Assembly: GCA_963702845.1 (NCBI GenBank)
Contig: OY969763.1
Span: forward strand, 4,800,001 to 4,864,000
Direction of reading: 5' to 3'
Origin: an uncultured Verrucomicrobiae bacterium
Lineage (GTDB): Bacteria; Verrucomicrobiota; Verrucomicrobiia; Limisphaerales; Palsa-1400
DNA length: 64,000 nucleotides
Positions within the stretch are counted from its first letter, which is position 1, and each line of letters begins with the position of its first letter. The notes under the pieces are model-generated. The model was not told the DNA's origin. It saw only the letters and a list, made by a program, of their open reading frames with translations, and did no database searches. The translations under genes were made by a program, and so were the position numbers. Shown here piece by piece: positions 14,616 through 51,385 of this stretch.

Positions 14616-14643
14616 AAAAAGCCCGCTGTTTCCAGCGGGCTTT
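14616..14643 (-). terminator. Intrinsic terminator, the original host terminator of the tRNA-Met gene
   Basis: Stem GCCCGCTG/CAGCGGGC with T tract on the minus strand, directly after the duplicated tRNA 3' end. Confidence 0.85.
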
Positions 14644-14697
14644 CAATTGGTTGCGGGGCTGGGATTTGAACCCAGGACCTTCAGGTTATGAGCCTGA
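14643..14697. repeat. att site of element 1 (displaced tRNA-Met 3' portion)
   Basis: 55-bp exact direct repeat of 43654..43708. Confidence 0.95.
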
Positions 14698-14859: not shown

Positions 14860-16290
14860 ATGCCTCTGGAATTTCGAAAGCAACGTGACGGTACTTTGCG
14901 CGATGTCTGGTTCGGTGCCTTTGAAGTGAACGGCAAACGTTCCGCCGTCAATCTCGGGGTGAAGATCGCGGGCGTTCCCCCACCCTCTCTCTCGCTCAAG
15001 GATCGGGGCGATACGGACTTTGAAGTGTCGCGCGCTAATGCGCTGTCGAAGTTGAATGGCATCGTGGATGAGGCGCGGTCGCAGCGCTCTTCGGAGCGGC
15101 TGGTGGAGAAGCTGTATGAGATTAAGACAGGCGAGCAGATTAAGTCGGTAAAGCTTTCGGACCTGGGCGCTGAGTGGGAGAAGATTCCGCGCAGGCGCAA
15201 ACCGGATGACCGCTACGCTTCGCAATGCAAGTCGCGGCTGGAGAAGTTTGCGACGTTCATTCGTGCGGAGAACTCCAAGGCTGACGAGATCGCGCATGTG
15301 ACGCGGACGACGGCGCGGGCGTTCCTGGATTCGGAAACCAAGCGCGGCGTCACAGCTAAGACGTGGAATGATTCGCTAGTGCTGCTGCGGGCGACGTTCC
15401 AACAGCTTATGCCGGCGGGGAGCATCAATCCGTTTTCCGGTATTCCAACGAAGGAGATTGAAACGGTTTTTCGCAAGCCGTTCACGCCGGAAGAACTCAA
15501 GGCGATCCTAAAGGCGGCCAAGGGCGATAAGTTTATCCGGCCGATTATCATTGCTGGCGTTTGCACGGCGATGCGGCGCGGCGATTGTTGTTTGCTGAAA
15601 GGGTCGGATGTGGATTTGAAAAACCGATTCATTTCGGTGAAAACGGCGAAGACGGGTGAGACGGTGAGCATTCCGATTTTTCCGGCGCTCTACGACGTTC
15701 TGAAGAAAGCGCTAAAGACCATCAAGGATCAGGCTGGATTCGTTTTCCCAAAGCAGGCGGCGATGTATACAGAGAATCCCGACGGCATTACGTGGCGGGT
15801 GCGCAAGGTTCTCGCCCTAGCTGGATTTAAGGACACGGAGAATGAAGATGAAGGGAAGGCAGAGACTGAGGATGAAAAGCCCGGTATTGGCAAGCTGGTG
15901 AAGGTGAACGGGGCTTTGGATGTGGCCAAGACAAACGGAAACGGCGCGGTGCATCGGGGCGAGATTCATGCGGAGCGCAATGGCGGGCTGCGTCGGGCAT
16001 CAGTGCGCGACTTCCATAGCTTCCGTGTGACGTGGGTCACGCTGGCGCTCACTGCGGGTGTGCCGCTGGAGCTAGTGCAAAAGGTGACAGGGCACAAAAC
16101 GACGGACATTGTTTTGAAACATTACTTTCAGCCAGGGCGCGAGGATTTCCGGAAGGCGTTGCAATCGGCGATGCCGAAGCTGCTGACGAATGGGAAGAAG
16201 TCGCCGAAAGAGAAGTTGCGCGAGTTGATCAACAAGTCAAAGGAAGAGGAGCTTAAAAAACAAATGTTGGCGGAGTGGGAGAAGCTGTAA
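14860..16290 (+). CDS. Tyrosine recombinase / phage integrase
   Basis: TAMRRGD, DFHSFR, TGHKT..VLKHY catalytic residues; next to att. Confidence 0.93.
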   Translation: MPLEFRKQRDGTLRDVWFGAFEVNGKRSAVNLGVKIAGVPPPSLSLKDRGDTDFEVSRANALSKLNGIVDEARSQRSSERLVEKLYEIKTGEQIKSVKLSDLGAEWEKIPRRRKPDDRYASQCKSRLEKFATFIRAENSKADEIAHVTRTTARAFLDSETKRGVTAKTWNDSLVLLRATFQQLMPAGSINPFSGIPTKEIETVFRKPFTPEELKAILKAAKGDKFIRPIIIAGVCTAMRRGDCCLLKGSDVDLKNRFISVKTAKTGETVSIPIFPALYDVLKKALKTIKDQAGFVFPKQAAMYTENPDGITWRVRKVLALAGFKDTENEDEGKAETEDEKPGIGKLVKVNGALDVAKTNGNGAVHRGEIHAERNGGLRRASVRDFHSFRVTWVTLALTAGVPLELVQKVTGHKTTDIVLKHYFQPGREDFRKALQSAMPKLLTNGKKSPKEKLRELINKSKEEELKKQMLAEWEKL

Positions 16291-20845: not shown

Positions 20846-21632
20846 TTGGGACATGAGCAAATAGGCAGACTTCGGAAATCCGCGAGCTGGAACAAGGTCG
20901 TTTCGCTTATTACGAACGGGGCGGACGTGGCGAAGGTGGCGGAGGCTACGAGTCAAGCGCTGGAAAAGTCGCTGCTCTATGTGCAGAATGATGCCGGGTT
21001 CAAAGAAGCGGTCCATTTAATGACGCAGCTTGCCGTTGCTGGAACCAAGAAAGATCCCGCTGAACACCTCGCATCGGTCGGTATTGTGCTTTCACCTAAA
21101 ACTTCAGTGGCCGATGTGGTGGCGGCGGTGACGGAGGCTTTGGATCAGAACGTAGATGCTACGGGAAAGAGGTCTGATTTCAGCGAATGCGCGCATCGGG
21201 CGCTGATTGGCACTCTTAGCCAGTATCTGAGCAACAATCAAACGACGCTGTTCGAATCCAGCCACGAAGATGTGAGTTCCGCCCTCAATTCTCTACGAAA
21301 AGAAAAAGCGTTCGGAGAGTTTTCGAAATCCTTTTTTGGGAAATTGACGAACGAATGCATGGATTACTTCCTTTCGAAAACGCTGGCGACGCATGTCGGA
21401 GAAGGGCAGCAATTTGCCACGATGAACCAGATGGCGCAGTTCGAGGCGGGCTTATCTAAACATTGTAGCGAGGTGGCGGTGATCGTGGAGAAGGTACAGC
21501 AAGGAATGGTTTTCAAAGAACCTGCGTGAAGGGAAAGGTGATATTACGAAAGATGTCGCTGAAGGGTTTGGCTGGTATGGCGTGAAAAAGATTCAAGATG
21601 CATTGAAGGAAAGGCCGAGCGATGGAAAATGA
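20846..21632 (+). CDS. QatB-like helical partner of the QueC-family protein, apparent +1 frameshift near 21494
   Basis: TTG start with AAGGA upstream gives MGHEQIGRL..W.KVV.LI; shifted frame continues YSKEWFSK..GFGWYGVKKI to TGA overlapping the next ATG. Confidence 0.6.
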
Positions 21633-28030: not shown

Positions 28031-28182
28031 AATACTGAGAAAGAACCAAAAGACAGGCAGAAGGGAAGGAGCACCCTCTTAGGAGTCGGGTGGCCTTCCT
28101 TCTTCTGCCGTTGGACTGCGGAGGTGTTAGCACACGGCCACCACTTGCACGCAGCGATCAACACGCCAGAAATAAAGCATTT

Positions 28183-28812
28183 ATGAGCCGACCATTTGAA
28201 CAACTGCCGACGCCGAGTGTTAGCACACGGACACCTTCGCTTTCTTTCGAGCAGCAACCGAAAGAAAGTGCTAAGGCGTTTGCGGCGTTTGGATTGTATC
28301 TGAGTATGGGGCCGGAGCGGTCGCTGGAATTGGTGGGGCGAAAGTTAGGCAAGAGTAAGGGGCAAATGGAAAAGTGGTCGCGGCGTTTTGAATGGACTTC
28401 GAGGGTGCAGGCGCATGGGGCGCACCTGGCTATTGTGGAGCGCGAAGCGATCGAGGCGACGGCGCGAAGCAAGGCGGCGGAGTGGGAAGGGCGTGAGCAG
28501 AAGTTGCGAGAAACGGAATGGGCGATGCATGAGCGGGCGATTGCTGCCGCGCAACGGGGTCTCGATGCCTACATGGCGCGTGAAAAGGTTTATGCGAATC
28601 TTTCGGACATCGCGCGGATGCTGGAGGTCGCGAGCAAGCTTGGGCGGCTGGCGACGGGGCTTGGGACGAACGGCGAGCGCATGAACGGTGACGAGTTGCC
28701 GACGGTGCGCGTCGAGGTCACGGTCGCACTGGAGAAGATTTATGGCGAGCCGTTGCCGGGTGAAATTATCGACGTCGAGGCGGTGCGAACACTGCCGGAG
28801 GGAACGCAATGA
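28183..28812 (+). CDS. Putative terminase small subunit
   Basis: ES.KAFAAF..Y..MGPERSL..V..WS....W..R pattern; directly upstream of and overlapping TerL. Confidence 0.65.
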   Translation: MSRPFEQLPTPSVSTRTPSLSFEQQPKESAKAFAAFGLYLSMGPERSLELVGRKLGKSKGQMEKWSRRFEWTSRVQAHGAHLAIVEREAIEATARSKAAEWEGREQKLRETEWAMHERAIAAAQRGLDAYMAREKVYANLSDIARMLEVASKLGRLATGLGTNGERMNGDELPTVRVEVTVALEKIYGEPLPGEIIDVEAVRTLPEGTQ

Positions 28813-30260
28813 CGCCGTGGGAAAGGTATTTTCTGATCGGGCGGCGCGCGGGTTGTCCGAAGGATCAGATGCAACGGTTTGAGCGGGCGGACGTCGTCTT
28901 GCAGGAGCGTCAGCTTGCGGCCAGCGCGGCGGCGCGACTTTGCGACGGTGCCGATGGGCCGACGGCGATCGGCTACGGCGGCGCACGTGGTGGTGGCAAG
29001 TCGCATTGGTTGCTTGGACAGATGGGCGTCGATGATTGTCAGCGTGTGCCAGGGTTGAAATGTTTGCTGCTGCGCAAGGTCGGCAAGGCGAACCTTGAGC
29101 ACTTCGAGGATCTGCGGCGAAAGTTGTTCACGAAACTCGGTCACGAGTTCTCGGCGTTTCGGGGAATCCTGACGTTCAACAATGGATCGCGCATCATCGC
29201 TGGGCATTTCCAGAACGAGAAGGACATCGACGCGTATCTCGGGCTTGAATACGACGTTATCGGCATAGAAGAGGCGACGACGTTGACGGCGCGCAAATAC
29301 CAGGACATCACGACGTGTTGTCGGACGAGCAAACCGAATTGGCGGCCGCGTATCTATTCGACGACGAATCCGGGCGGCGTCGGTCACGGCTGGTATCGAA
29401 CGAGGTTCGTTCTCCCGTTCTTGAACAAGGCGGAAACGGAAACGAGGTTTGTGGCGGCGCGTGTGACTGACAACCGGTGGAACAACCCGGAGTATATCCG
29501 GGTGCTGCAGGGTCTGAGCGGTTGGCAGCGTCGCGCGTGGCTGGATGGCGACTGGGACATCGCGGCGGGGCAGTTCTTCACGACGTTGCGGCGCGATGTG
29601 CATGTGGTTGAGGATTTCGATGACAGGCGCGCGCGGGAATGGTTCTGTGCGTTAGACTATGGATTTGCGCATTACACTGTGGTGTTGCTCGGCTGCACGG
29701 ATTGTGATGGGAACGTTTTCGTCGTGGATGAACACGCGGAACGGCTCTGGTTGCCGCAACGTCATGCGGCGGCAATCAAGGCGATGGTGCAACGGCACAA
29801 AACGGTTGCGAATCGCGCCGGAAGTTCCGGTTCCCATTTGCAAATTGCGGATTTGAAACGGTTCGTTGCTGGTGCGGATGTGTTCTCGCGTCAGAGCGAT
29901 GGCACGACGATTGCCGCGCAGTATGCGAAGCACGGAATCACGCTGCGGTGCGCGAACACAGACCGCATCAACGGCTGGGCTGAGATTCTGCATCGTCTCG
30001 GCGACACGAACGTCGTGCTCGCACCGATCGTCGGTCTCGCAGTGGGAGGAACGAAGCCTACGCTTTTCATTCACAAACGATGCGGGCGGCTGATTGAGAC
30101 GCTGCCAGCGCTGCAACATGATCCCCATCGCCCTGAGGATGTGTTGAAGGTCGACGCCGACGATGATGGCGTCGGCGGCGATGATGCGGCGGATGCGTTG
30201 CGTTACCTGGTGGCGACGAAAGCACGAAGTGTCGTCGCGAGGAAGTTGAGCGGGTTTTGA
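28809..30260 (+). CDS. Terminase large subunit
   Basis: YGGARGGGKS, IEEA, TTNPGGVGHGW, LDGDWD, LDYG, DDAADALRY. Confidence 0.93.
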   Translation: MTPWERYFLIGRRAGCPKDQMQRFERADVVLQERQLAASAAARLCDGADGPTAIGYGGARGGGKSHWLLGQMGVDDCQRVPGLKCLLLRKVGKANLEHFEDLRRKLFTKLGHEFSAFRGILTFNNGSRIIAGHFQNEKDIDAYLGLEYDVIGIEEATTLTARKYQDITTCCRTSKPNWRPRIYSTTNPGGVGHGWYRTRFVLPFLNKAETETRFVAARVTDNRWNNPEYIRVLQGLSGWQRRAWLDGDWDIAAGQFFTTLRRDVHVVEDFDDRRAREWFCALDYGFAHYTVVLLGCTDCDGNVFVVDEHAERLWLPQRHAAAIKAMVQRHKTVANRAGSSGSHLQIADLKRFVAGADVFSRQSDGTTIAAQYAKHGITLRCANTDRINGWAEILHRLGDTNVVLAPIVGLAVGGTKPTLFIHKRCGRLIETLPALQHDPHRPEDVLKVDADDDGVGGDDAADALRYLVATKARSVVARKLSGF

Positions 30261-30387: not shown

Positions 30388-30642
30388 ATGATGACAAAAA
30401 CGCGTGTTGAGGACCGGGAAGGGCCAGTGGGAAAGATTTTTGAAAAGCAGGCTTCAAAAATTCCGTCGGATATTTTCATGTGGGCGGCCGGTGGCTCAAT
30501 CGTTGCATCGCTAGCGCTCAAATTGGCCAAGCGCGATCATGAGGCGCTGTTCGTGGGACAATGGGCTCCAACATTTCTTGTGTTGGGATTGTTCAACAAA
30601 TTATTGAAGGTGGCGGGTAGTGAGCACGCAGAAAACGCGTAA
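30388..30642 (+). CDS. Small conserved-type membrane protein (host-like cargo)
   Basis: KIPSD.F.WAA..S..ASL.L....ALFVGQWAPTFL.LG.NKL. Confidence 0.7.
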   Translation: MMTKTRVEDREGPVGKIFEKQASKIPSDIFMWAAGGSIVASLALKLAKRDHEALFVGQWAPTFLVLGLFNKLLKVAGSEHAENA

Positions 30643-31828: not shown

Positions 31829-32586
31829 AAGTTTTTTATGGTCTGAAACGACTGAAATCCTGACAGCCGTTATAGGGCGGCATTGTTTGACACGATATAA
31901 CTAATCGTAAAATGGAGCAATTGCATTTGGCGAACCAACTTCCTAACACGGCTAAGCGGTGGTTTGTCAGCGCGTGCCAGAGCAAGCTTGCGTGCGGGGT
32001 TGGTGGGTGTGTTTGGGTTGTCTTTGTCTTTGGGGCGAGCCGGGAGGCGAGGCGGTTGTCTTTACGGGCTCGCGTTGGCGCGCGTTCCCTAGCGGGGGAG
32101 GGGGCGAAGTGTTGCTAGCTATTCCGAGCGCGCCTGCCCCCTCCCCCAGCAGCCCGCGTCGACCGCGAATGCGGAACTGTAAACGTGGTCTGGGGGAGGG
32201 GGCGCGGGGGCGGGAGCGGGGAGCGCGCGAGGGGGGCAATGCGCCGGTGCGCGAGGGGGAAAATGGGCGGGTGCCGCCGGCGTGCGGCGGGGAAATCAAG
32301 GCGGCGAGAGACGCTGGATTATATGAGCAAAGCGAACCGATGTTGTCTTTGTAGCGCTGTCGGACGGTTGAGGCGTTTGATTCGGTTGGAGGGCTAACTG
32401 ATGCCGAAGGTTCGTACCAATTGAGCGGGTGGCGGCTGGTCTGCTCTCACTGACGTCGAATTGGAATGCGCAGAACAGATGCCACGCGCGCAACTGACTT
32501 TGTCTTTGTGGGATGTTGGATAACCCGAAGCGGCGGTTAACTTGATCTGGCTGGTTCGGCCTCACAGTTTATCCCGATGCGGTTGA

Positions 32587-32853
32587 TCATGCTGCCTGGA
32601 GTGCTCGTGAGTAACTACGCATCGTCACGAACCACATCCCAAGCCCCCAAATAAAGCCGCCAGCCAGGCAAAGTCCAACAATGAAATACGGCGGCAACGC
32701 CTCCTCTTTGTGCGACACGTGTTCATAGATGGTGCCAAAAACTGCCATAGGAACACCCCAACCGAGGACGCCCCGCAGCAACACAAAACGCCAAATGCCT
32801 CGTTCCTTGATTCTTTGCCATCTCGCTAATCGCAACGTTCGGATATCGCTCAT
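32587..32853 (-). CDS. Cassette gene: small two-TM protein
   Basis: RW..IKE.G..RFVL.RGVLGWG; ATG 2 bp after GTTAGGC. Confidence 0.75.
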   Translation of the reverse strand: MSDIRTLRLARWQRIKERGIWRFVLLRGVLGWGVPMAVFGTIYEHVSHKEEALPPYFIVGLCLAGGFIWGLGMWFVTMRSYSRALQAA

Positions 32854-32855
32854 AC

Positions 32856-32957
32856 GCCTAACGCCGAGGTCAGCGACGGGAGCCAGCCGCCCCTGACGTC
32901 TGATTTGTCTCCTGAACCGAACGGCTGGCTCCCGTTCGCTGCACCGTCTTATTCGCC
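32856..32957 (-). other. Integron attC site (102 bp)
   Basis: Minus strand GGCGAAT..CAGCGAACGGGAGCCAGCCG..loop..CGGCTGGCTCCCGTCGCTG..GTTAGGC, a long hairpin with unpaired bases. Confidence 0.85.
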
Positions 32958-33610
32958 ATATTCTCGACCTGCTTCCACAGTCTCTCCCTCGCGTAACCCT
33001 CGATAAGACTGTACGACGAGCCCTTCCATTCCAATGTTTTCCAAGCCGACGATAAAAGGATCTGGTGGAATGCGTTACTGGCAGTGGTTAAAGTGGGTTG
33101 CACGTAAGGTTTCGTGCGGAAGACTCCATTTGACGCACAATAAACAAGATAGCTACCCGCCCGCTCTGCCAAGCCGCCCAGATTATAGCCGAGCGTCATC
33201 GACAACGGTACACCGTTGGTGATGGCAAAGGGCAGGTTGGGCCAAGTCTTAGGAGGCATCGACTCGTAAGGGACTCCGCTGGGGGCACCAAGGCGTGGTT
33301 CACGTAGGGGCAGCGACGGGTTCTTTTCCACGAAAACCAGCCGGCATAAAAGACAGATGCGTTCGTTCGCCTTCTCCTGCTCATCGATTGACTCCCACTT
33401 TTTGCCCGCCAGTTCTTTGAGATGGTCAAAAGCGGAGTCTCGTCCCGCCTTTATGAACGTGTTCGCGCACTCGGCGGCTATATCGGGTCGGAACTCCGAT
33501 GCCGCGATTTCTGGGAACCGCGACACCGCGCTTTCCATGTCGTTGGTTGCCGCGTTCACCGAAATAACCAGCAGTGCAACAAACGCGATTGCTTTTGCGA
33601 ATAGTGTCAT
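32870..33610 (-). CDS. Cassette gene: secreted hypothetical protein, reading into its attC
   Basis: Signal peptide; ATG directly after GTTCGCG; C-terminal ANKTVQRTGASR is translated attC. Confidence 0.75.
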   Translation of the reverse strand: MTLFAKAIAFVALLVISVNAATNDMESAVSRFPEIAASEFRPDIAAECANTFIKAGRDSAFDHLKELAGKKWESIDEQEKANERICLLCRLVFVEKNPSLPLREPRLGAPSGVPYESMPPKTWPNLPFAITNGVPLSMTLGYNLGGLAERAGSYLVYCASNGVFRTKPYVQPTLTTASNAFHQILLSSAWKTLEWKGSSYSLIEGYARERLWKQVENMANKTVQRTGASRSVQETNQTSGAAGSRR

Positions 33611-33853
33611 CGCGAACTAGTGATTATGCGACGGGGTGTCGCGGTCATTTTGATATACGAACGGTTGGTTCATATTGGTTGAGGAGATTATTGTTATGCT
33701 GGCGCTGCGAAGCAAGCGCAACACAACGCGCTCGCGAGCACGGCGACGACATACCGGAGATTCGCGATTGAAGTGGAGTGCGTAGCGGAGGGTCGACGGC
33801 ACTGGGCGCGTGGCAAAAATACCGCAAGCTTTATTGCAGACCACTGAGGCTCT

Positions 33854-34294
33854 CTATTCGTAGCGGCCCTCTGTTGTGTCCGTATACCAGAACTCCGGCT
33901 GCGCCCAAACATACCAGTGATCACCCACTGGGCGAAAACGCCGGACATACTGAGGGAAATGGTTGGTGGTCGGATTGTAGGCAATACCGTAATAGTCGTG
34001 GTGGAACTCGTCACCGAGGAGGACATAAAGGATGCCCCCGCTGGTCTTTGCTTGAAATTGCTTGCCACTCCATTTCTTCCAAGGAAGCCCTGTGATATAT
34101 GTCTTCGGCTCCAAATCCTCCCAATCAAGCGTTTCCTCTTTGTTAGTGAACATGTCCCACCCATTAGTCGCTATGAAACTCGACACAGAGGCAAGTGCGT
34201 TCGAGCCTTTAATGTCGGGTCTTGGTGTTCGCCTCCATTTCGGCGTACATCCGACAAGCAGGATCGCGATGCATAGAAACATGGAACGCGACAT
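33854..34294 (-). CDS. Putative lipoprotein, possibly cassette-derived
   Basis: LLVGC lipobox; ATTAGGC at 34306-34300 just upstream. Confidence 0.65.
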   Translation of the reverse strand: MSRSMFLCIAILLVGCTPKWRRTPRPDIKGSNALASVSSFIATNGWDMFTNKEETLDWEDLEPKTYITGLPWKKWSGKQFQAKTSGGILYVLLGDEFHHDYYGIAYNPTTNHFPQYVRRFRPVGDHWYVWAQPEFWYTDTTEGRYE

Positions 34295-34503
34295 GTTGCG
34301 CCTAATATTCAATATGCTCCAACTGTTCGCATAGTTTTAATCCGCGAACAAGGGTTTTTGCGGTTGTCCTAAAAGCTGTCAAGCTCGGATGGGACGTTAC
34401 TGCATGCCGGTTGGTGCAGCGGAACGGTTGCTGCGTGCATCGGCGTGCATGTGGTTTCTGTAGCGGGGCGATAGCGTTAAAAGAGTCATGATACGGTTCT
34501 TCA

Positions 34504-36153
34504 GTGCCAGTGGACTCTCTACATCCTGAATACGAACTGCATCAAGATTGGTGGCGGACTCTGCGCGACGTGATGGATGGGGACCGCGCGATGAAGCGGT
34601 CGGGCATTCGTTACATTCCGCGATTGGAGGGGATGAATGATCTGGAATACCGGTGGTACGTGGAGCGAGGGTTTTTCTACAATGCGACCGCACGCACGGT
34701 GTTGGGTTATTTGGGAATGATCTTTCGCCGCGAGCCGGTGCTGAAGTTGCCGGCACCGGAGAATCTTTTAGGAAAGGTGCTGCGGGAATTTGTCAACGAT
34801 GCTGATTTGCTCGGCAAGGAGTTGGCTGGCTATGCGCGCGAGGTGACAACGGAGGTCACGGTGTTGGGTCGTTGCGGGACGTTGATTGACTGGTGCGATG
34901 CGCCTGAGAACCGCGCTTACTTCACGTTTTATCGAGCGGAAGATATTGTGAACTGGCGCGAGCAACGGATTAACGGGCGGATGCAATTGACGCTGGTTGT
35001 GCTTCGGGAGGTGTTTTCAGATGGCAATCAAACAAGCGGGGCCGGTGATGAGTTTGCGCCCGCGCAAGTGGAGCGGTTGCGGGTGTTGCGGTTGGTTCAG
35101 GACGCGCCAGCGGCACAAGGTTCGGCCCCAGCGCAGAAAGGCAAGCATGTTGGTTGGCATTATGTGGTTGAGGTTTGGGGTCGCGCTAAAAAGTCGAACG
35201 ATGGAGTGCGGCGCGCTGATGTGGACGGCGCTGTGGGGAGCGATCTTGGGAGCGGCATCAGTCCGGGCTCGGCTGCACCCTCTGCTACGGTGGGAACTTA
35301 TCCCGCTGTTTCTGCGGTGAATAATGTCAGCACTGATTCAAAGAGTCTGACGCTTTTGGAAACGAGGGTTCCGTTGCGTCGCGGCAAGCCGCTGCCGAAT
35401 GTTCCTTTCATTTTTCACGGACCGAGCTTATCGAAGTCGACGGTGGAACGGTCGCCGATTACGGACATTGTCGGGGCAAATCTGGACCATTACCGGATGA
35501 CGACGGATTACAAACACGGGATGCATTTCACGGCGTTGCCGACTGCGTGGGTTTCTGGTTTTGCCAAGGACGATCCGTTGCGGATGGGTTCAAACACGGC
35601 GTGGGTGACGGAGACGCCGGGCGCGACGGCTGGGTTCCTGGAATTTAAGGGTGACGGTTTGCAGACGTTCGAGCGCGCGCTGGATCGGGTCGAGCGATTG
35701 CTGGCGGTGTTGGGAGCGCGACTGCTGGAGTCGCAGAAGCGGGCGTCGGAAAGCGCGGAGGCAATCCAGCTTCGGCAGTCGGCGGATAGCAGTGTGATTG
35801 CGGGAATTTCTGTGGCGGTGTCGAAGTCGTTGAATCAGGCGTTGCGCTGGGTTTATTGGTGGCACTCGACTGAGGAGCATCCCGATGAGGTTTCGGGTGG
35901 GGATATTTTGATCGAGCTGAATCGGGATTTTGACATCGTGCGTTTGACTGGGCGCGAGATTCAGGCGCTGGTGACGGCGTGGCAGTCGTCAGCGATCAGT
36001 TTGGAAACGGTTTTGCACCAGATGGAACGAGGCGAGGTGCTTCCTCCTGGCCGCAGTGTTGCCGAGGAGATGGCTTTGATTAAGGCGAATCCGCCGCCGC
36101 TGCCGTCGGGTCAAGGAACGAGTTGGGGGCAGAGTGGTGGCGGGGAGGGTTAG
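34504..36153 (+). CDS. Phage portal protein (DUF4055-like)
   Basis: HPEY..W....D, YIPRL, Y..R..FYNATART, NLDHYR...DY.H..H, LGARLL; lies between TerL and scaffold. Confidence 0.85.
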   Translation: MPVDSLHPEYELHQDWWRTLRDVMDGDRAMKRSGIRYIPRLEGMNDLEYRWYVERGFFYNATARTVLGYLGMIFRREPVLKLPAPENLLGKVLREFVNDADLLGKELAGYAREVTTEVTVLGRCGTLIDWCDAPENRAYFTFYRAEDIVNWREQRINGRMQLTLVVLREVFSDGNQTSGAGDEFAPAQVERLRVLRLVQDAPAAQGSAPAQKGKHVGWHYVVEVWGRAKKSNDGVRRADVDGAVGSDLGSGISPGSAAPSATVGTYPAVSAVNNVSTDSKSLTLLETRVPLRRGKPLPNVPFIFHGPSLSKSTVERSPITDIVGANLDHYRMTTDYKHGMHFTALPTAWVSGFAKDDPLRMGSNTAWVTETPGATAGFLEFKGDGLQTFERALDRVERLLAVLGARLLESQKRASESAEAIQLRQSADSSVIAGISVAVSKSLNQALRWVYWWHSTEEHPDEVSGGDILIELNRDFDIVRLTGREIQALVTAWQSSAISLETVLHQMERGEVLPPGRSVAEEMALIKANPPPLPSGQGTSWGQSGGGEG

Positions 36154-36196
36154 GTTTCAGGAACCGATGTCAGATGAACGGCCTTGCGCCGGATTG

Positions 36197-36225
36197 TTGA
36201 CCTTCATCGCTAGGATAGCTAAGGT
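36197..36225 (+). promoter_or_regulatory. Possible sigma70 (Pc-like) promoter for the cassette array
   Basis: TTGACC-17 bp-TAAGGT about 100 bp upstream of the first cassette. Confidence 0.35.
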
Positions 36226-36311
36226 GCGGTCGGAGCACCAAACGAACGAAACAAGGAAAACTTTCCGCCTTTAACGTTCACTTATGACCTTAAGTGGAAA
36301 AAGGTAATACT

Positions 36312-36328
36312 TAATAACATAGTTAGGC
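36312..36328 (+). other. attI-like crossover site
   Basis: TAATAACATAGTTAGGC, AT-rich, no attC hairpin upstream; resembles attI1 TAAAACAAAGTTRRRY. Confidence 0.5.
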
Positions 36329-36345
36329 GGCAAGACGCGCATCGC

Positions 36346-36669
36346 ATGAACGACCAGACCAAAGCCGCATATCGTCACTTGCTTTACGTGGCTATGCTTG
36401 CCACGCGCAACTATTGCCAGCCACGCGCGGACGCCAGTCGCAATCCATTCGTCTGGCGGCGGCAGTATCATCAGAGCCGGATAGCTGGCAGGCTAGCGGA
36501 TTGGCTTCACAATCTCGCGCACTACAGTTCGCTAGATTTTGCGGGATTCGACGACCAGCATTTTTGGTATGAACACAGCTTGGTTTGTCAGCACCATCCT
36601 GGCGAAGGCTTCGAGCGTTACCGAGAAATTTTTGATGAGTATTTTCAGGGGAAGAGATATGTATGCTGA
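36346..36669 (+). CDS. Cassette gene: hypothetical protein
   Basis: Lies between GTTAGGC (36322) and GCCTAAC (36674); LADWLHNLA motif. Confidence 0.75.
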   Translation: MNDQTKAAYRHLLYVAMLATRNYCQPRADASRNPFVWRRQYHQSRIAGRLADWLHNLAHYSSLDFAGFDDQHFWYEHSLVCQHHPGEGFERYREIFDEYFQGKRYVC

Positions 36670-36673
36670 CATT

Positions 36674-36769
36674 GCCTAACCAGAGCGCTGCAGCGGACGG
36701 CGAGTTGACGCTGAGTTTGCAATCGACAAGTCAGTGGCTCGCCGCCGCTGAGCTGACGTGTTGTTAGGC
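36674..36769 (+). other. Integron attC site (96 bp)
   Basis: GCCTAAC..GCAGCGGACGGCGAG..CTCGCCGCCGCTGAGC..GTTAGGC. Confidence 0.9.
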
Positions 36770-36775
36770 TGGCCC

Positions 36776-37105
36776 GTGAAAAAATCATCATACGAAACTG
36801 TTGCGGCAACTTTAGCGCTCGTTGGCGCATTTGTACTCGTTGGCGTTTACGTGCCGATCCTGAATCCGGGGCTGACCAAGCTCGCGCTACGCATGGAACT
36901 TCCATCGCTTGGCTATTATATCGTTGCGACTCCGATTCCGGTTTTTTTGCTACTTGCAGCATGGCACTTCAACAAGAAGGCGCGAGCAATCAAAGAGCAA
37001 TCGGAGCAGTCTCCACGCGTTCCAGAGCCCGCGTGGCAGAAAAGGCTCAAGTGGATTCTCTGCGCTATCGTGATCGTTTTGGTACTGTTTACATTTTTAT
37101 GGTAA
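36776..37105 (+). CDS. Cassette gene: three-TM membrane protein
   Basis: GTG 6 bp after attC; hydrophobic helices. Confidence 0.7.
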   Translation: MKKSSYETVAATLALVGAFVLVGVYVPILNPGLTKLALRMELPSLGYYIVATPIPVFLLLAAWHFNKKARAIKEQSEQSPRVPEPAWQKRLKWILCAIVIVLVLFTFLW

Positions 37106-37112
37106 CATCCTC

Positions 37113-37145
37113 GCCTGACGAGAGCGCTGAGCTGACCCGTTAGCC
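37113..37145 (+). other. Internally deleted attC (33 bp)
   Basis: GCCTGAC-GAGAGCGCTG-AGCTGACCC-GTTAGCC matches the two outer ends of the 36674 attC joined at CGCTG. Confidence 0.7.
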
Positions 37146-37167
37146 AGCGTCATCGCGCCCTTGCTGT

Positions 37168-37674
37168 ATGACCGTCCAAACAGACATCACTACGAACGAT
37201 CTCAAAGTGTTCGGCCAACACGTCTCAACCGGAGCGGATGGCGGGAGGTTGATGTACACGTTGCTAATCGGCTCGGGTGTGGCTGTGGGGGTTATCCTTG
37301 GCGTCACTCTGGCTGTGACCGGGGTCCGACTTCAGGTGGCAAGCCTGATGGCAGGCCTTCTTGCTGGAGCCTTCTGGCTCACCCTGTTCTCCCGGCTGTA
37401 TATGCGCAAGATGGGCCCAGCCGCAGATAGCTACGTTCTTGGACCTCGGGCGGTTTCCACAACGGACGATGGTATCATTGAGAAGTCGCAAAAGCACGAG
37501 GCGCTCTTTCGGTGGTCGTCAATTCGTTCAGTGGATTCGACGAAGGAGCACATTTTCGTCATGCTCGAACGTAACGCTGGGATTATTGTGCCATTCCGAG
37601 CTTTCTCATCGGACGCCGAGCGCGACCACTTCCTTGCAGAAATCCGGAGGCAGACAAGGGCGGAGACCAGATGA
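37168..37674 (+). CDS. Cassette gene: YcxB-like membrane protein
   Basis: Two TM helices then WSSI..V......FV......IIVP.RAF. Confidence 0.75.
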   Translation: MTVQTDITTNDLKVFGQHVSTGADGGRLMYTLLIGSGVAVGVILGVTLAVTGVRLQVASLMAGLLAGAFWLTLFSRLYMRKMGPAADSYVLGPRAVSTTDDGIIEKSQKHEALFRWSSIRSVDSTKEHIFVMLERNAGIIVPFRAFSSDAERDHFLAEIRRQTRAETR

Positions 37675-37681
37675 ATCTGCC

Positions 37682-37719
37682 GGCTAACTTTTCGGTGGAG
37701 CAAATCGCGGCGGGCGATG
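37682..37719 (+). other. Truncated attC (left arm only)
   Basis: GGCTAAC..GGTGGAGCAAATCGCGGCGGG interrupted by the second portal-end repeat. Confidence 0.6.
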
Positions 37720-37750
37720 CGAGTTGGGGGCAGAGTGGTGGTGGGGAGAA

Positions 37751-38833
37751 TTAGGCTGGTGCGTTAGAATACCATTGCGGATAGGCGGCGTGCACACGCG
37801 CAACCGCTTTTTCCAACTCCTCGTTTGAAGTGTTCGGAGCGAAGGGCTTGACCATTTCAACTTCAGAAAGGCTTACTTCCGGCTGCGCTTGCGTCAATTG
37901 AAAGATACTTGTTCCGTGAACGTTGTCGAAAAACCTTATTTTTGAATGTTCGCCATGACCACCGAGTTGGAGAATTTCTCTTATTGAGTAAGCAAGGTAG
38001 GACCATGATTTTCCGTCATAGATTGAGGGTTTGGGGGCAGAGAGCGGCACTTTATTCTTCCATGAATGGTAGCATTGGTAAACGGTTGCGGCGGGATTCC
38101 AATTGCGGCGGGCGGGCGTCTGGTATTCCGGGTAGAAATGAAAAACGTAGGCGGGCGGCGGAAGCTGTGGCTCCAATTTGTTCACTTCATTGACGGTAAG
38201 ACAGGTCGGAAAAAAGTACTCTTTGTCATCGTCAGTCCTTCTAACAGGTAAGAACACTGCTGAATTGCGGTAGCCGAAAACAGCAGCACCTTCGTTGTTA
38301 TTGGACATGATCACTACCGGCGTTCCGAAGAACATTGTCAAAAATTCGGTAAGGTCCGCTCCGATATGGTTTGGCACACGCTCCGAGAAGCGATCCAACA
38401 GATGGCCCGCGAAACTGACTCGCCTTCCGTTAAGGTAGACTTCGCGGAAAAAATCGTCGCCAGCGTAGAACTTGAATCTGTGAATCGTTCCTTTTTCAGG
38501 ATCATTAGCAGCCCGTCGCTGAACTATTGAAATGCGGGAGACAAGATTCTCATCAAAAATTGGGAAGAGCCGAAGCCTGTCCTTTCGTGCGCGGTTTATA
38601 TAGAGACAGAAGAGGATTACCGCCTGAGCCCGCTGGATTTTCAAAAAGTCCGTGGCCCGGTGGTCAACAGTCGCAATCTTTTGGGGAAGTCCAGAGTTGA
38701 ACTCGTGCGTCAAAGCTCTGAGGAGTTTCTGCAACTGATCGGTATGTGGAAACCGAGTTTCGTTGTCTCTCCGCTCCTCAACCAGGTGAATGTCGTCGAG
38801 ATACTTCGAGTTGAATTGATGATGGTGCGACAT
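37751..38833 (-). CDS. Hypothetical protein (moron-like cargo)
   Basis: 360-aa ORF antisense to the head genes; no recognisable motif. Confidence 0.65.
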   Translation of the reverse strand: MSHHHQFNSKYLDDIHLVEERRDNETRFPHTDQLQKLLRALTHEFNSGLPQKIATVDHRATDFLKIQRAQAVILFCLYINRARKDRLRLFPIFDENLVSRISIVQRRAANDPEKGTIHRFKFYAGDDFFREVYLNGRRVSFAGHLLDRFSERVPNHIGADLTEFLTMFFGTPVVIMSNNNEGAAVFGYRNSAVFLPVRRTDDDKEYFFPTCLTVNEVNKLEPQLPPPAYVFHFYPEYQTPARRNWNPAATVYQCYHSWKNKVPLSAPKPSIYDGKSWSYLAYSIREILQLGGHGEHSKIRFFDNVHGTSIFQLTQAQPEVSLSEVEMVKPFAPNTSNEELEKAVARVHAAYPQWYSNAPA

Positions 38834-39031: not shown

Positions 39032-39835
39032 ATGGCACTCAAATTTAAGTACCAAAAGCGCGAGGAGATTCCGGCGGAGCTCCTTGCTCATTACGCGGAG
39101 CGTGATGGCGCTTGGCAATTGGATGCGGACGGTGTCGCGGACAATGTGCTAGCGCACGGCCACGATGCCCTGAAAGCCCGGCTGGATGAGTTTCGCCAAA
39201 GCAATGTGACGCTGCTGAAGCAATTGGAGGAGCAGCGGAAGAAATTCGAGGGCATCGATCCTGATGAAGTGCGAAAGCTTGGCGAAGAAAAACAGAGGCT
39301 CGAACTGTTGGCACAGGGCCACAAGCCGGAGGAGATCGACCGCATCGTTGGTGATCGTGTCAAAAATCTAAAAGGCGAGTGGGACAAGCAGCTCACGGCG
39401 GTGACTTCTGAACGCGACGCGCTCAATTCACGGTTGATGGCGATTCAGATCGACCAGGGCGTTATCGCCTCGGCGAGCAAGCGAGGTCTTCGTTCAACGG
39501 CCATTCCTGACATTACTTCCCGCGCGCGAAATGTTTTCAAGCTGGTGAACGGTGTTCCCACTGCATTTGAAAGCGACGGGCAAACGGTGCGCGTGGGTAA
39601 AGACGGCGTGGCGGCTTTGACTCTGGACGATTGGGTGAATGCACAGGTCGCAGAAGCTCCACATCTTTTCGAATCGAACGCTGGCGGCGGTGCTGCTGGC
39701 AATCCCGGCGGTGTCGGGAATGGCTCAGTGAAAAATCCGTGGAAGTCAGAAACGCGAAACGTGACTGAACAAATGAAGTTGCTGCGGAGTAATCCGCAGT
39801 TGGCCGCGCAAATGCAAGCGGCTGCCGGGTGCTAG
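39032..39835 (+). CDS. Capsid scaffolding protein
   Basis: MALK...IP....HY.E.DG...LD, coiled coil, APHLF....GGGA, KNPW...N.TEQ; precedes the capsid gene. Confidence 0.8.
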   Translation: MALKFKYQKREEIPAELLAHYAERDGAWQLDADGVADNVLAHGHDALKARLDEFRQSNVTLLKQLEEQRKKFEGIDPDEVRKLGEEKQRLELLAQGHKPEEIDRIVGDRVKNLKGEWDKQLTAVTSERDALNSRLMAIQIDQGVIASASKRGLRSTAIPDITSRARNVFKLVNGVPTAFESDGQTVRVGKDGVAALTLDDWVNAQVAEAPHLFESNAGGGAAGNPGGVGNGSVKNPWKSETRNVTEQMKLLRSNPQLAAQMQAAAGC

Positions 39836-39962
39836 GACACTAGCGTGTCGGCCACGACGGCCACGGCGCTTCGCGCAAACACTGCAAATAAATACAGAAA
39901 GTTGAAATTTGAAACGGCCCGCGCAGCGCGACGGGCCCTACCAAGATAGAAAATAAAATTTT

Positions 39963-40970
39963 ATGGCAAAGACACAAATCGCGGACGTAATCGTCCCGAC
40001 AGAGTTTGAGAAGTATGCGATTCAACGCACGGCTACGTTGTCGGCGTTCTATCAGTCCGGCATCGTGCAGATGGATTCGGAGTTCGACGCGCTCGCCGAG
40101 CAAGGCGGCACGGAGGCCCATCTTCCTTTTTGGAATGACATCTCAGGCGCTCGACAACCGTTGAGTGATGCCGCACCGCTGACGACGCAGAAGATTGGGG
40201 CGGACCAGGATATTTCCCGTATTCATAACGACGGCCAAGCGTGGTCGGTGAATCAACTGGCGAAAGCGTTGGCTGGTGATGATCCGATGGATGCGATTTT
40301 GAACCTTGTCGGCACGTATTGGGCGCGCACGAATCAGGGGGTTTTGATTTCTTCGCTGAAGGGAATGTTCGGCGCTGCGTCGATGTCGAGCAACCTTCTT
40401 TCCATCGCGAGCGAGTCGATCGCCGGGACAAGTTCGGCGACGCGGTTAACTGGTTCCACTTTCGTGGATGCTTGCACCAAGTTGGGTGATCGCGCGGATC
40501 GCCTTGTTGCGGTTGCGATGCATTCTGCGACGGAGGCGGCGCTGCGTAAGCTGGACTTGATTGATTTCATTCCGGACAGCGAAGGCAAGCCGGTGATTCG
40601 AGTGTTTCAAGGTCGGCGCGTCATCATCGATGACGGTTGCCCTGTTCGCGTTGGGACGACTGACGGGAATGTCTATACGACTTACTTGTTCGGTCCGGGC
40701 GCGTTCTGCCAGGGCTCGGCGAAGCTGAACAATCCTGTGCAAGGCGGTTTCGGCACGGAAGGCGTTGAGCTTTCGCGGTCGGCGCTGGATGGTGATTCGA
40801 ATCTGATCAATCGTCGCCGTTACATTTTGCATCCTCGCGGTGTGAAGTTCACAAGTGCTTCGGTCGCGGGCAAGAATCCGACTGATGCAGAAATCGAAAC
40901 GCAAACGAATTGGGTTCGCGTTTACGAGGCGAAGAACGTGCGCATTGTCGCAGTCGTCCACAACAACTAG
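39963..40970 (+). CDS. Major capsid protein
   Basis: T.IADVIVP..F..Y, QSGI, LPFWND, GDDPM.AI, AMHS, VIIDDG.P, INRR.YILHPRG. Confidence 0.9.
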   Translation: MAKTQIADVIVPTEFEKYAIQRTATLSAFYQSGIVQMDSEFDALAEQGGTEAHLPFWNDISGARQPLSDAAPLTTQKIGADQDISRIHNDGQAWSVNQLAKALAGDDPMDAILNLVGTYWARTNQGVLISSLKGMFGAASMSSNLLSIASESIAGTSSATRLTGSTFVDACTKLGDRADRLVAVAMHSATEAALRKLDLIDFIPDSEGKPVIRVFQGRRVIIDDGCPVRVGTTDGNVYTTYLFGPGAFCQGSAKLNNPVQGGFGTEGVELSRSALDGDSNLINRRRYILHPRGVKFTSASVAGKNPTDAEIETQTNWVRVYEAKNVRIVAVVHNN

Positions 40971-41015
40971 ACACTAGCGTGTCGGCCACGGCGCTGCGCG
41001 CAAAGACACAGAAGT

Positions 41016-41639
41016 ATGAAAACGATTTCGTTAGAGAAAGCTGCTAATGCAGGGCGACGGTATTCGAACGTGCTGCGGCTGGCGTCGAATGTGGCCGATG
41101 GGGAAACGGTGACGATTGGGAATGAGGTTTACGAGATTGATAACAACGCGGCTGTCACTGCGGGAAACATTCTGGTGGATTGTTCGGGCGGGCTCACGCC
41201 AACGCTAGCGGGTGCGGCGTTGGTCGCGACGATCAACGCGAAGACTCAGCAAGGGATTACCGCGAAAGCAATCAGCGCAAATGAGATTCTGATTGCGACG
41301 CGGGTTGGTATTGCGGGACGCGCGATTGTATGCGCTGAGACGTTGGCGGGTGCAAATAATGCATGGGCTGCTGCCGCGATGTATGGCGGGTCGGATGTTT
41401 TCAAGGGCGTTCAACTGCAGTCGCGTGCGGTAAATGCAACGGAGGTCGCGCTGGCGGCGATGCGGTTTGCGTTTCCGTTCACGCCTGTAGCTGCGTTGGT
41501 GCAAGTCCGCACTGCGGCAGGAGCGCCTAAAGCGTGGGGTGGGACAACTACTCTAACGGGTGATCGCGTTGACCTCGCGAATACTGGTTCTACGGATTTG
41601 GCGGCGACAGACGTCGTGACAGTCTTTGCCGGTGAATGA
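41016..41639 (+). CDS. Putative virion/head decoration protein
   Basis: Ala/Thr/Gly-rich beta protein (ADGETVTIG...YE) directly after the capsid gene. Confidence 0.55.
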   Translation: MKTISLEKAANAGRRYSNVLRLASNVADGETVTIGNEVYEIDNNAAVTAGNILVDCSGGLTPTLAGAALVATINAKTQQGITAKAISANEILIATRVGIAGRAIVCAETLAGANNAWAAAAMYGGSDVFKGVQLQSRAVNATEVALAAMRFAFPFTPVAALVQVRTAAGAPKAWGGTTTLTGDRVDLANTGSTDLAATDVVTVFAGE

Positions 41640-41845
41640 TCGCTTTTATGGAAGGTCTTTACCCAATCATTCGGCGAAAGCGGAAACCTTTGGTTGAGAC
41701 CGAGCCGGTCGGGCCATTGGCAGCTCCGGCGAAAGCGCCTGATGTCATGCCACCGAAGCCGAGTTCGCCCGGTGTGCCCAAACCAGCCGATGAAACAAAG
41801 TTCGTACAAAATCTTTCCGCCGCTCCCGCAGCCCGGAAGCGTTAG
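41636..41845 (+). CDS. Small Pro/Lys-rich hypothetical protein
   Basis: ATGA overlap with the upstream gene; LYPIIRRKRKPL. Confidence 0.5.
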   Translation: MIAFMEGLYPIIRRKRKPLVETEPVGPLAAPAKAPDVMPPKPSSPGVPKPADETKFVQNLSAAPAARKR

Positions 41846-41850
41846 CCTAA

Positions 41851-42572
41851 ATGGCTGGTGGGCATTGTGGGCGCAAAAGCGCCGGCGCAAGCGCGCACAG
41901 GCTAACGCGGGGCTCGATCCCGGCTTTGTTCCCGAGGACATGCAACTCTGGCTGCGGGCGAGTTCTTTGGGGGAAGGTCCCGGCGATTCGGTTTCGAATT
42001 GGCAGGACGACAGTGGGAATGCGAACGATGCTTCGGAAAGCACGGTTTCAATGCAGCCGACGTATCAGGAGGTGACGTTTGCGGGAAAAACTTTTCCGGT
42101 GCTTCGGTTTGATACGGTGGATGACGGGATGGAGACGCCGTTGGAAATTGATGGTGCGTTTTCGATTTTTGCTCTGTGGCGTTTGGCGAGCGCTGATGTG
42201 TTCAGTGGAGCGATTGTTTCATCCGGGTCTGGTGATTGGACCATGGGCGACGTGAATGGTCAGATGCTCTGCTACTTCGAGGGTTGGAGCGCTGCGTCGC
42301 CGGTGAACACTTCTGATTTCTATTTGTTGGAAGCGCGCATAGTTCCTGGAACCAGTCCAACGGAAATTTACGTTAATGGCGTGTGGGTCGGCATGGCCGA
42401 CGGAGCGTCCTCTGCTCCGGGTCAAGTGATGCTCGGTGCGGCCGGGGATAACGGGTATCCGGGCAATTGTGATTGCGCGGAGATTTTGATTTACGACCGA
42501 TATCTATCCGGTGATGAAGCTGATGGTGTGCGTGCATATTTTCAATCGCGCTACAACTTCTTGAAGTTATGA
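41851..42572 (+). CDS. LamG/concanavalin-like domain virion-associated protein, start uncertain
   Basis: LWLRASSL..GD.VS.W.D.SGN.N.A....QPTY and AEILIYDR.LS..E...V..Y...RY in ORF 41694..42572. Confidence 0.6.
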
Positions 42573-42886
42573 ATCGTTTTTTGATCATTGTTCCTGCGGA
42601 AGATCGCGATCGTGCCAACTCGGTTGCTGCGGAGCAATTCGACACAACGGGCGGCGCTCGGACTTTCTTCATCGGCATTTCGGCCAGCGGACAAGCGCCT
42701 GCGACGCATTATTGGTGCTCGGCTCAATTTACTGATGAGAACGCAACGAAGCTCGCTTTGGCTCAGGCGGATTTTCCGCTCGCGGTGGTGCAAGGCTACG
42801 ACGCCGATAGCGACGCGGGGTTTCCGCAGCGGACCATTGCGACGTTGGGATTGAAACAAATTGTGAGTTTGCCTGAAAGGACCTGA
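42569..42886 (+). CDS. Hypothetical phage protein
   Basis: Translationally coupled on both sides; S.SG..PATHYWC. Confidence 0.65.
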   Translation: MNRFLIIVPAEDRDRANSVAAEQFDTTGGARTFFIGISASGQAPATHYWCSAQFTDENATKLALAQADFPLAVVQGYDADSDAGFPQRTIATLGLKQIVSLPERT

Positions 42887-43509
42887 TGGCGCTTGTCGTT
42901 ATCAAAGAGGATGGAACGGGTTTGCCGGATGCGAACAGTTACGGCGTGGCAGCGGATGGCGACGATTACCACGCCGCGCATCTATACGCGTCCGCGTGGA
43001 GTGGTGCTACGGCCGGCAACAAGGATATTGCGCTCGTGATGGCAACGCGGCTGATCGATGCCCACTGTGAATTTCTGGGGTTCCACAAATCGAATGCGCA
43101 AGCATTGCAATGGCCGCGCGTCCAGGTGCCCGACAGGGAAGCGAGTGGTGTCTTTTGGGCGCCGGGTCTGGTGATTGGGCTCGGGCCTGCGGCGCCATTG
43201 TATATTTCGAGCGACGTTGTTCCGCCCTGTGTCGTTGCAGCGACGTGTGAGTTGGCGCGAGAGCTTCTGATCACTGACCGGACGGGGCCGCCTTTGGGAG
43301 AGGGTTTGAAATCGACTTCGGTTAAGACGGCAACCTCAAGCAAACCGGTGGGGACGACTGGCGTCGCGACTTCTTCCTCGTCGGCGTCCGCTTCCGTGTA
43401 TGATAAGTCGGATCGGCGGCCAATTTTAACGCCCGTTGTGGAGGCTTTAATGAGGCGCGTTCTCGCTGGGAGCCCCGGCAAATCGACGGTGAAATTGATT
43501 CGGACGTAG
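42886..43509 (+). CDS. Head-tail adaptor (annotated in many phages as DnaT-like ssDNA-binding protein)
   Basis: EDGTGL.DANSY...D.YH....W...K..AL..ATRLID....F.G....Q.L.WPR. Confidence 0.75.
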   Translation: MALVVIKEDGTGLPDANSYGVAADGDDYHAAHLYASAWSGATAGNKDIALVMATRLIDAHCEFLGFHKSNAQALQWPRVQVPDREASGVFWAPGLVIGLGPAAPLYISSDVVPPCVVAATCELARELLITDRTGPPLGEGLKSTSVKTATSSKPVGTTGVATSSSSASASVYDKSDRRPILTPVVEALMRRVLAGSPGKSTVKLIRT

Positions 43510-43620: not shown

Positions 43621-43654
43621 AAAAACGGCCCTAAAACGTGTGTTCTAGGGCCGT
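43621..43654 (-). terminator. Element-supplied terminator for tRNA-Met
   Basis: Minus strand ACGGCCCTAGAAC..GTTTTAGGGCCGT followed by a T tract. Confidence 0.75.
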
Positions 43655-43658
43655 CAAT

Positions 43659-43735
<77 letters not shown>

Positions 43736-47331: not shown

Positions 47332-47407
47332 GGCCTCGTAGCTCAAATGGATAGAGCAGTGGTTTCCTAAACCGCGCATGACGGTTCAATTCCGTCCGAG
47401 GCTACCA
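47332..47407 (+). tRNA. tRNA-Arg(CCT); contains the left att site of element 2
   Basis: Cloverleaf GGCCTCG/CGAGGCT, anticodon loop TTCCTAA, TTCAATT T-loop, encoded CCA. Confidence 0.95.
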
Positions 47408-47499
47408 CCCTTGCAAACAAAGGGTGAAATGCGTGTTTTGTAGGTGTATTTTCAAGCAAACAGTTGACAGCGTGCAACAACTATGCAACACTAACGCGC

Positions 47500-49159: not shown

Positions 49160-49324
49160 GGTGTTAGGTATTTATTGTTCGGTAAGTGTGCGCGGTCTGA
49201 CACCCATGCGTTGAGGCGTCCAACGTGTCCACCCATTTCCTTATGTACCCTCTATTCCCCCTTACGCATGTTTTACTCTGTTGGATAAACATAAAGAAAA
49301 TGGTTGGACTGGTTGGACGGATTG

Positions 49325-51363: not shown

Positions 51364-51385
51364 GGGTAGAGAGGTTTTGTTTTTG

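Follow-up and report, generated by a model that had tools for sequence, protein, structure and literature searches.

Integron gene cassettes carried by phages have been described before. Among 10,705 phage genomes, 17 attC clusters without an integron integrase (CALINs) were reported, and one of these, headed by its own attI, lies among the packaging genes of the Shewanella prophage M16-3 (Qi et al. 2023, PMC9892861). Phage-borne CALINs are thus already published, and a prophage setting is by itself nothing new. The locus presented here lies in a stretch of 64,000 nucleotides (the window) from an uncultured Verrucomicrobiae bacterium (contig OY969763.1, positions 4,800,001 to 4,864,000), whose genome is a single contig with 89.8% completeness. 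It comprises three short runs of gene cassettes in a 29-kb phage-like island. As in M16-3, for which capture by illegitimate recombination was proposed, the arrays lack an integrase, are placed among phage packaging genes, and are headed by attI-like sites. Unlike in M16-3, three attI-like types head three short runs, about 75 such leaders exist in the host with no integron integrase gene (intI) found, five paralogous islands carry differing cassette sets, and the carrier is tail-less.

Erosion of intI that leaves arrays behind is also known from Xanthomonas, and mobilization of CALINs in trans is stated in that work (bioRxiv 10.1101/2025.06.18.660453). There, one ancestral locus is present per genome, whereas here many platforms are dispersed. 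Integron tools look for attI sites of classes 1-3 only (PMC4889954), and integrase-less arrays are therefore usually taken for passive leftovers. Nothing on dozens of solo attI sites in one genome was found in the literature (subscription journals were not covered). We hold with moderate confidence that the window contains three eroded integron platforms, each consisting of a leader and one to three cassettes with intI gone, which were shuffled by recombination into the cargo hotspots of the island.

The window arrays are real integron gene cassettes. The original prediction had read them as such, and its positions for cores and attC sites all agree with the sequence. The attC structure (cores, L boxes, hairpin, and extrahelical bases) is present at 36674-36769 and 32856-32957, with two unpaired bases in each stem, and is absent in full form at 37113-37145, 37682, and 32560, which are collapsed, half, and core-only remnants, respectively. 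The runs open with the 5′ cores GTTAGGC at 36322 (plus strand) and GTTCGCG at 33617 (minus strand), and the predicted pairing of 5′ cores with the inverse core of their own unit holds at 7/7, 6/7, and 7/7 positions in the plus-strand units and at 5/7 and 6/7 in the minus-strand units. A covariance model (R1) was trained on the bottom strands of 33 attC sites, all from outside the window (27 from the host, five from intI-linked arrays of relatives, and one from the related locus L090). It recognizes both intact sites, as had been expected of an attC model, with 75.6 bits (36674-36769) and 57.3 bits (32856-32957) for the bottom strands against 28.1 and 10.3 bits for the top strands; the best unrelated score in the window is 11.5 bits. 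The bottom strands have folding z-scores of -3.2 and -4.7, respectively. The top strands fold equally well or better, and both strands beat shuffled sequences; therefore, folding energy alone cannot choose the attC strand. Two intact sites 3.7 kb apart on opposite strands, with further remnants and no intI nearby, amount to a CALIN (two or more attC sites), and each array taken singly holds one intact attC.

A longer attC ending at 32393 was also considered and rejected, as it does not fold as one site and has no R1 match. A loose genome scan with an attC arm matrix was uninformative (124 matches versus 137 in the reversed genome), and was improved by a stem filter. Elsewhere in the host genome (G000), one insertion splits four attC sites at the left arm (G000:C1 1730832, 2185922, 3665675, and 4070999), and halves of other attC sites adjoin a different repeated element (about 99% identity). 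Such repeated insertion in attC sites is probably due to an attC-targeting insertion sequence.

At the head of each of the three window runs stands a non-coding leader, of which the host has further copies and whose conservation extends to the crossover point. There are 75 leaders in the host: 30 of type T1, 39 of type T2 with its variants, and six of type T3. They share 55-120 conserved bases ending at G|TT, with cassette-derived sequence beyond, as is characteristic of attI; T1 copies, for example, are conserved up to G|TT, and GTT is retained at the crossover in 57 of the 75. Leader profiles, which were built from the same copies, yielded 31, 42, and 9 genome matches and none in the reversed genome. 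An open reading frame (ORF) of at least 50 aa begins within 90 nt after 74 of the 75 leaders, and where an attC left arm is found at the ORF end (32 leaders), 22 show core pairing of 6-7/7. Only two homologous pairs exist among the 74 leader-headed ORFs, and 21 of the 30 T1 copies have a neighbor at least 94% identical. Unrelated ORFs behind near-identical leaders therefore need repeated site-specific loading, mostly independent and recent. An own attC is detected by R1 behind 19/30 T1, 7/39 T2, and 2/6 T3 leaders. A Pfam match was obtained for 14 of the 64 leader-headed ORFs scanned (of 74), including Imm32, Imm33, Imm50, and SMI1/KNR4.

The leaders change one part of the original prediction, in which cassettes were put into bare phage DNA: the unit is a leader plus cassette, and each run begins at a repeated attI-like leader. 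The three leaders, as well as the sixth cassette gene at 33854-34294, which T2 heads, the scar of the xfp gene, and a 36-bp direct repeat (Table 1), were absent from that prediction. The corresponding alternative is that a host IntI inserted bare cassettes at attG sites in the prophage, or that they were captured as leader-less blocks. IntI does insert cassettes at genomic GWT sites, and the resulting single attC sites lacking integron integrases (SALINs) resemble the window in that isolated cassettes occur outside integrons (Loot et al., bioRxiv 10.1101/2022.09.11.507474); moreover, the plus-strand array is a captured block. However, attG sites have only GWT in common, and attG insertion accounts for isolated cassettes but not for shared leaders of 55-120 conserved bases. 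All three runs start at a repeated leader conserved to the crossover rather than at an arbitrary GWT, and no intI was found in the host at its 89.8% completeness. We consider this alternative very improbable, and its attG or leader-less version is largely refuted for these three runs.

Table 1. Features of the cassette runs and of the island that carries them (window positions)
Feature	Position	Strand	Basis or remark
T1 attI-like leader, crossover G at 33617, one extra adjoining base	33615..33732	-	30 host copies; aligned to copy beside intact xfp
T2 attI-like leader, just upstream of portal promoter, crossover decayed to A|TT	34304..34360	-	32 host copies and 7 variants
T3 attI-like leader, crossover G at 36322	36238..36324	+	6 full host copies; also at arrays of both same-genus genomes
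Intact attC	36674..36769	+	R1 75.6 bits; ~17 related sites or parts elsewhere in host
Intact attC	32856..32957	-	R1 57.3 bits; folding z -4.7
Collapsed attC, both cores present, stem deleted	37113..37145	+	Sequence; R1 13.5 bits, E 0.21
Half attC (inverse core and left arm only) at cut end of block	37682..37712	+	Sequence; no R1 match
Inverse core GCCGAAC of last minus-strand cassette, remaining attC lost	32554..32560	-	Sequence; no R1 match
Cassette gene, 88 aa, hydrophobic segment	32587..32853	-	No match in Pfam or PHROG
Cassette gene, 246 aa, N-terminal hydrophobic segment, runs into own attC	32870..33610	-	Translation
Sixth cassette gene, 146 aa, lipoprotein-like N-terminus, attC deleted	33854..34294	-	62% homolog at G000:4980581
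Cassette gene, 107 aa, soluble, family not recognised	36346..36669	+	73 homologs
Cassette gene, 109 aa, three hydrophobic segments	36776..37105	+	Segment prediction
Cassette gene, YcxB-like membrane protein	37168..37674	+	PF14317
Frameshifted scar of 3′ end of host phosphoketolase gene xfp	33733..33796	+	Aligns to intact xfp end at G000:2198670
Incoming portal 3′-end variant, left copy of 36-bp direct repeat	36119..36154	+	Repeat comparison
Displaced original portal 3′ end, right repeat copy	37718..37758	+	100% over 41 bp to portal end of sibling
attL, tRNA-Met 3′-end copy, left island border	14637..14697	.	97% identity over 61 bp to 43648-43708
attR inside tRNA-Met 3′ end, right island border	43648..43708	-	61-bp duplication
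Island tyrosine integrase, not IntI	14860..16290	+	PF00589, phrog_1; TIGR02249 21.6 bits vs cut-off 265
Terminase small and large subunits	28090..30260	+	phrog_6299, phrog_979
Portal gene	34504..36153	+	phrog_145; 97% aa identity to portal of sibling island
Scaffold, major capsid protein, structural ORFs, head-tail adaptor Ad1	39032..43509	+	phrog_206, phrog_247, phrog_477

No integron integrase was expected near the arrays, and none is found. In the host, TIGR02249 gives XerC/D-like matches only, far below its cut-off, and a tblastn search with IntI of the family gave no intI remnant, such that no complete integron (intI beside attI) was detected. The two integrases of the window were said to be unlike IntI and to sit at tRNA att sites, and both statements stand: TIGR02249 yields 21.6 bits for 14860-16290 and no match for 47464-48783, and duplicated tRNA 3′ ends lie beside each.

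Among relatives, IntI is present in 5/31 genomes of the family and 156/401 genomes of the order. In comparison with attI sites beside intI, the leader ends are similar at p<0.01 to 7/26 (T1), 6/26 (T2), and 2/26 (T3), T2 being closest to the attI of the family's own intI. When 35 intI loci were searched with profiles of the full leaders, none had a significant T1, T2, or T3 match next to it; therefore, the exact parent integrons were not found. In seven of twenty array loci of relatives, which were chosen for having attC sites, a truncated intI, of which the first 45-163 aligned residues are left, stands at the head of the array, and the attI side is readable in six of the seven. Three such truncated heads occur in one relative's genome and two in another. 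Repeated arrival of integrons followed by erosion of intI would leave solo attI platforms behind. Of three family loci in which an ORF neighboring a full intI was scanned, two have a PF23343 Rep there, which suggests a small rolling-circle carrier. At L094 930-1403 and L095 1098-1565 (genomes G005 and G012), the full intI faces, in convergent orientation, a PF23343 Rep together with a conserved ORF of 112 aa. Both loci adjoin an apparent tRNA-end remnant and are candidates for a small rolling-circle element carrying an integron.

The similarity of leader ends to attI beside intI also bears on a second alternative, in which each leader is a promoter or regulator module, modular shuffling is driven by these modules, and the boundary at G|TT is a mere trace of cassette ancestry. 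The PeSL modules of T4-type phages offer a parallel. Inverted repeats are present in the leaders, many T2 ORFs have no attC, and recombination inside T2 was observed, all of which this alternative accommodates. It does not explain why conservation stops at G|TT, with core complementarity in 22 of the 32 testable cases, nor why the leader ends match attI. We consider it quite improbable as a replacement for the platforms, which may themselves have promoter activity in their leaders.

Under the eroded-platform reading, the platforms occupy the terminase-portal gap and the portal 3′ end of a tail-less head-module island. IntI would first have loaded cassettes at the leaders' G|TT, either before intI was lost or in trans, in the latter case presumably from small visiting elements with IntI beside a rolling-circle Rep. 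Leader-cassette units were then copied and swapped among islands via homologous and microhomology recombination, as sequence comparison shows, with the leaders, the xfp scar, and duplicated gene ends supplying the homology. Lastly, attC sites and some crossovers decay while the ORFs remain open, so that the cassettes become fixed. The fixed cassettes are probably self-expressed accessory genes.

The entry of one unit can be followed by comparison with a sibling island. The window and sibling portal genes are 93-99% identical across the last kilobase until about 36105, where the sibling's end is instead identical to window 37718-37758; therefore, the plus-strand array arrived as one block that brought along a portal end and displaced the resident one. 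The block ends in a half attC fused to the portal stub. In the sibling, a portal-end duplication of this kind surrounds another gene, and T2 is at the same pre-portal position in both islands, with different cassettes behind it. Additionally, two other host units have a mutated T2 crossover and about 660 bp downstream in common but are unlike each other upstream of T2, a pattern consistent with recombination within the leader and not with IntI action. The suggestion that cassettes were captured as blocks or loaded in trans by a host IntI is hence upheld in its first half for the plus-strand array, whereas no resident host IntI was found for the second.

The history of T1 leads to the host phosphoketolase gene xfp. 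One T1 copy with its cassette and attC directly abuts the 3′ end of intact xfp, and pieces of this gene end accompany T1 at eight or more further places, window 33733-33796 among them; XFP_C pieces are found at eight host places besides the window scar. In several T1 copies the scar begins exactly at the G|TT of the preceding attC. This would be expected if leaders spread as IntI-mobile attI-type cassettes, with a gene and its attI excised between two leaders and reinserted along with a new docking site; the window's T2-gene-xfp scar-T1 would be one such cassette. Cassettes flanked by attI recombine with IntI1, and Delta-attI-type cassettes are functional in class 1 and 2 integrons (26 clinical cassettes; PMC12901181); there, as here, attI copies within arrays take the place of attC as cassette boundary. 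Furthermore, the next leader lies within 400 nt for 15/46 attC-less leader-headed ORFs versus 4/28 of those with attC. On the other hand, most T1 units begin at ragged microhomology joints instead of G|TT, the plus-strand block terminates in a half attC joined to the portal stub, and the crossover is mutated in the two host units with a common T2. Delta-attI cassettes also reside inside intI-bearing mobile integrons, whereas here dozens of solo leaders are spread across one chromosome, many with a host-gene scar. Although we regard this alternative as unlikely, it can operate together with the erosion of platforms.

A bolder extension of the eroded-platform reading is a working "distributed integron", which strikes us as doubtful. 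In it, dozens of solo attI-promoter slots, many of them in head-only satellites, would still be loaded in trans by visiting IntI borne on rolling-circle elements, and the satellites would spread self-expressing cassettes among Verrucomicrobia with borrowed tails. The xfp slot would be a chromosomal landing pad whose past occupants are archived in the islands.

Several results weigh against the eroded platforms as proposed. The similarity of T3 to known attI is weak, and no leader was found directly beside a full intI; with the host at 89.8% completeness, an intI could be unassembled. R1 found no own attC for 31 of 38 T2-type ORFs and four of six T3 ORFs, and some attC-less leader-headed ORFs may not derive from cassettes at all. 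Genome-wide, only 150 of 3137 candidates were scored with R1, and its attC counts are thus lower bounds. In the window itself, T2 is without the crossover G and T1 has one extra base, so both may be dead as sites. A consensus promoter scan of 32400-38000 gave none above chance. Finally, homologs of the 107-aa cassette gene are in a fixed non-cassette place at three of eight metagenome loci.

In comparison with the genome as a whole, the leaders are concentrated in phage-like sequence. Five islands, which account for 3.6% of the genome, hold 35 of the 75 leaders, a 12.8-fold enrichment (the copies are not independent, and for four islands the outer borders are approximations). Within 20 kb of terminase sequence, a zone that covers 17.6% of the genome, lie 48 of the 75. 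The host carries five complete paralogous islands along with several terminase remnants; the capsid protein of one sibling is 98% identical to that of the window island.

The borders of the window island are set by a 61-bp duplication of the tRNA-Met 3′ end (14637-14697 and 43648-43708), and it contains an integrase, a primase, a helicase, both terminases, the portal, scaffold, and capsid genes, and the adaptor Ad1, after which it stops. Pfam and PHROG scans of the 29 kb gave no match for tail or lysis genes, and three tail families searched for in the host genome were not found. Of the 96 ORFs that follow Ad1 in 19 loci of relatives, 49 were scanned, and two of these gave a partial match (residues 1-44) to a PHROG tail family. 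Phage-inducible chromosomal islands that form capsids (cf-PICIs; He et al., bioRxiv 10.1101/2025.02.11.637232) likewise carry integrase, replication, terminase, portal, capsid, and adaptor genes without tail or lysis genes. They are about 10-18 kb long with protease, connector, and HNH genes, whereas the island is 29 kb, has a scaffold, and gave no protease or HNH match; it also differs in its terS-terL-gap-portal order and its Verrucomicrobia host. The island therefore resembles a cf-PICI in gene content and falls outside that group in size and gene set. Nothing linking capsid-forming PICIs, tails, and Verrucomicrobia was found in the literature. The island could move cassettes only if it excises and borrows tails.

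The gene order terS-terL-gap-portal-scaffold-capsid-Ad1 is kept among related loci, and relatives of the portal come nearly all from Verrucomicrobia records. The terminase-portal gap in these loci spans 2.8-7.5 kb with variable content. It is a variable cargo slot family-wide, which in this host lineage is occupied by cassettes. That the cassettes are a trait of the island family was considered and rejected: among 50 related loci drawn from other genomes and viral contigs, R1 finds an attC in one, at the L090 site that is part of its training set. Consequently, the predicted variation of cassettes around the portal holds for the sibling, behind the same T2, and does not extend to these loci. 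The six cargo proteins were not found in 87 related loci. Exact-pattern searches returned T1 in 2/251 order genomes, own genome included, and in no metagenome contig; T2 in 2/31 family genomes and in no viral contig; and two attC arm patterns in no viral contig. In another family of the order, locus L128 (914-999, genome G164) has a T1-like leader and one cassette directly after glgC, with no intI on the 2.5-kb locus.

With regard to the cargo, the expectation of mostly small membrane or secreted proteins is borne out. A 19-residue hydrophobic segment is present in four of the six ORFs, and in a fifth the N-terminus is hydrophobic up to a Cys, which we read as a putative lipoprotein signal. 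Behind the 146-aa gene's homolog at G000:4980581, the sequence reads as an attC-like hairpin. At four of eight metagenome loci, attC arrays contain homologs of the 107-aa gene, and the ESM Atlas gave no usable match for this protein. Single, low-depth contigs provide hints: two short ones from run X2 correspond to 36320-36531 and 36589-36754, each with a single difference, and one from run X1 has an attC-like arm at 36752 linked to 37138. The YcxB cassette may therefore occur behind another attC.

Further observations concern the surroundings of the cassettes. The same hotspots hold non-cassette cargo ORFs at 30388-30642 (84 aa, weak phrog_23295) and 37751-38833 (360 aa, no family), and the minus-strand cassette slot terminates at a G-rich non-coding block (31997-32351), which the sibling island also has. 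The left arm of the island (17517-23670), with a helix-turn-helix and IrrE-like peptidase regulator, a GIY-YIG nuclease, and a 682-aa QueC-domain protein, is possibly a defence module. A 16-base motif of the GTTAGCAC-CGGCCAC type occurs in the window at 25002, 28126, 28219, 31143, 39148, and 39307. Four to seven copies are present in four of the five islands and one in the sibling, with 33 genome matches at up to two mismatches; outside the window, copies lie in islands of the host around G000 128-144 kb, 1.72-1.74 Mb, and 4.28-4.30 Mb. The motif is always on the head-gene strand, often within coding sequence, and could be an oriented protein-binding, packaging, or recombination signal. Rfam matches are limited to two tRNAs. 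A second island of 7.3 kb at tRNA-Arg (47332-54628) has an integrase, parts of a D5-like primase, and an Abi_alpha gene. A second terminase family, which we take to be Mu-like, has about eight large-subunit copies without nearby head genes (G000:C1 2183025-2185238 and other loci), and in several places T3 leaders lie near its small-subunit gene.

Taken as a carrier, the island seems to collect ready-made cassette units and not to run an integron of its own. In this genome it is the docking site that has multiplied and been refilled, and the route by which units enter phage-like islands can be seen. This yields three candidate attI families and one candidate helper integrase, and gives a testable account of the origin of CALINs and of how promoterless cassettes may be expressed in mobile elements.

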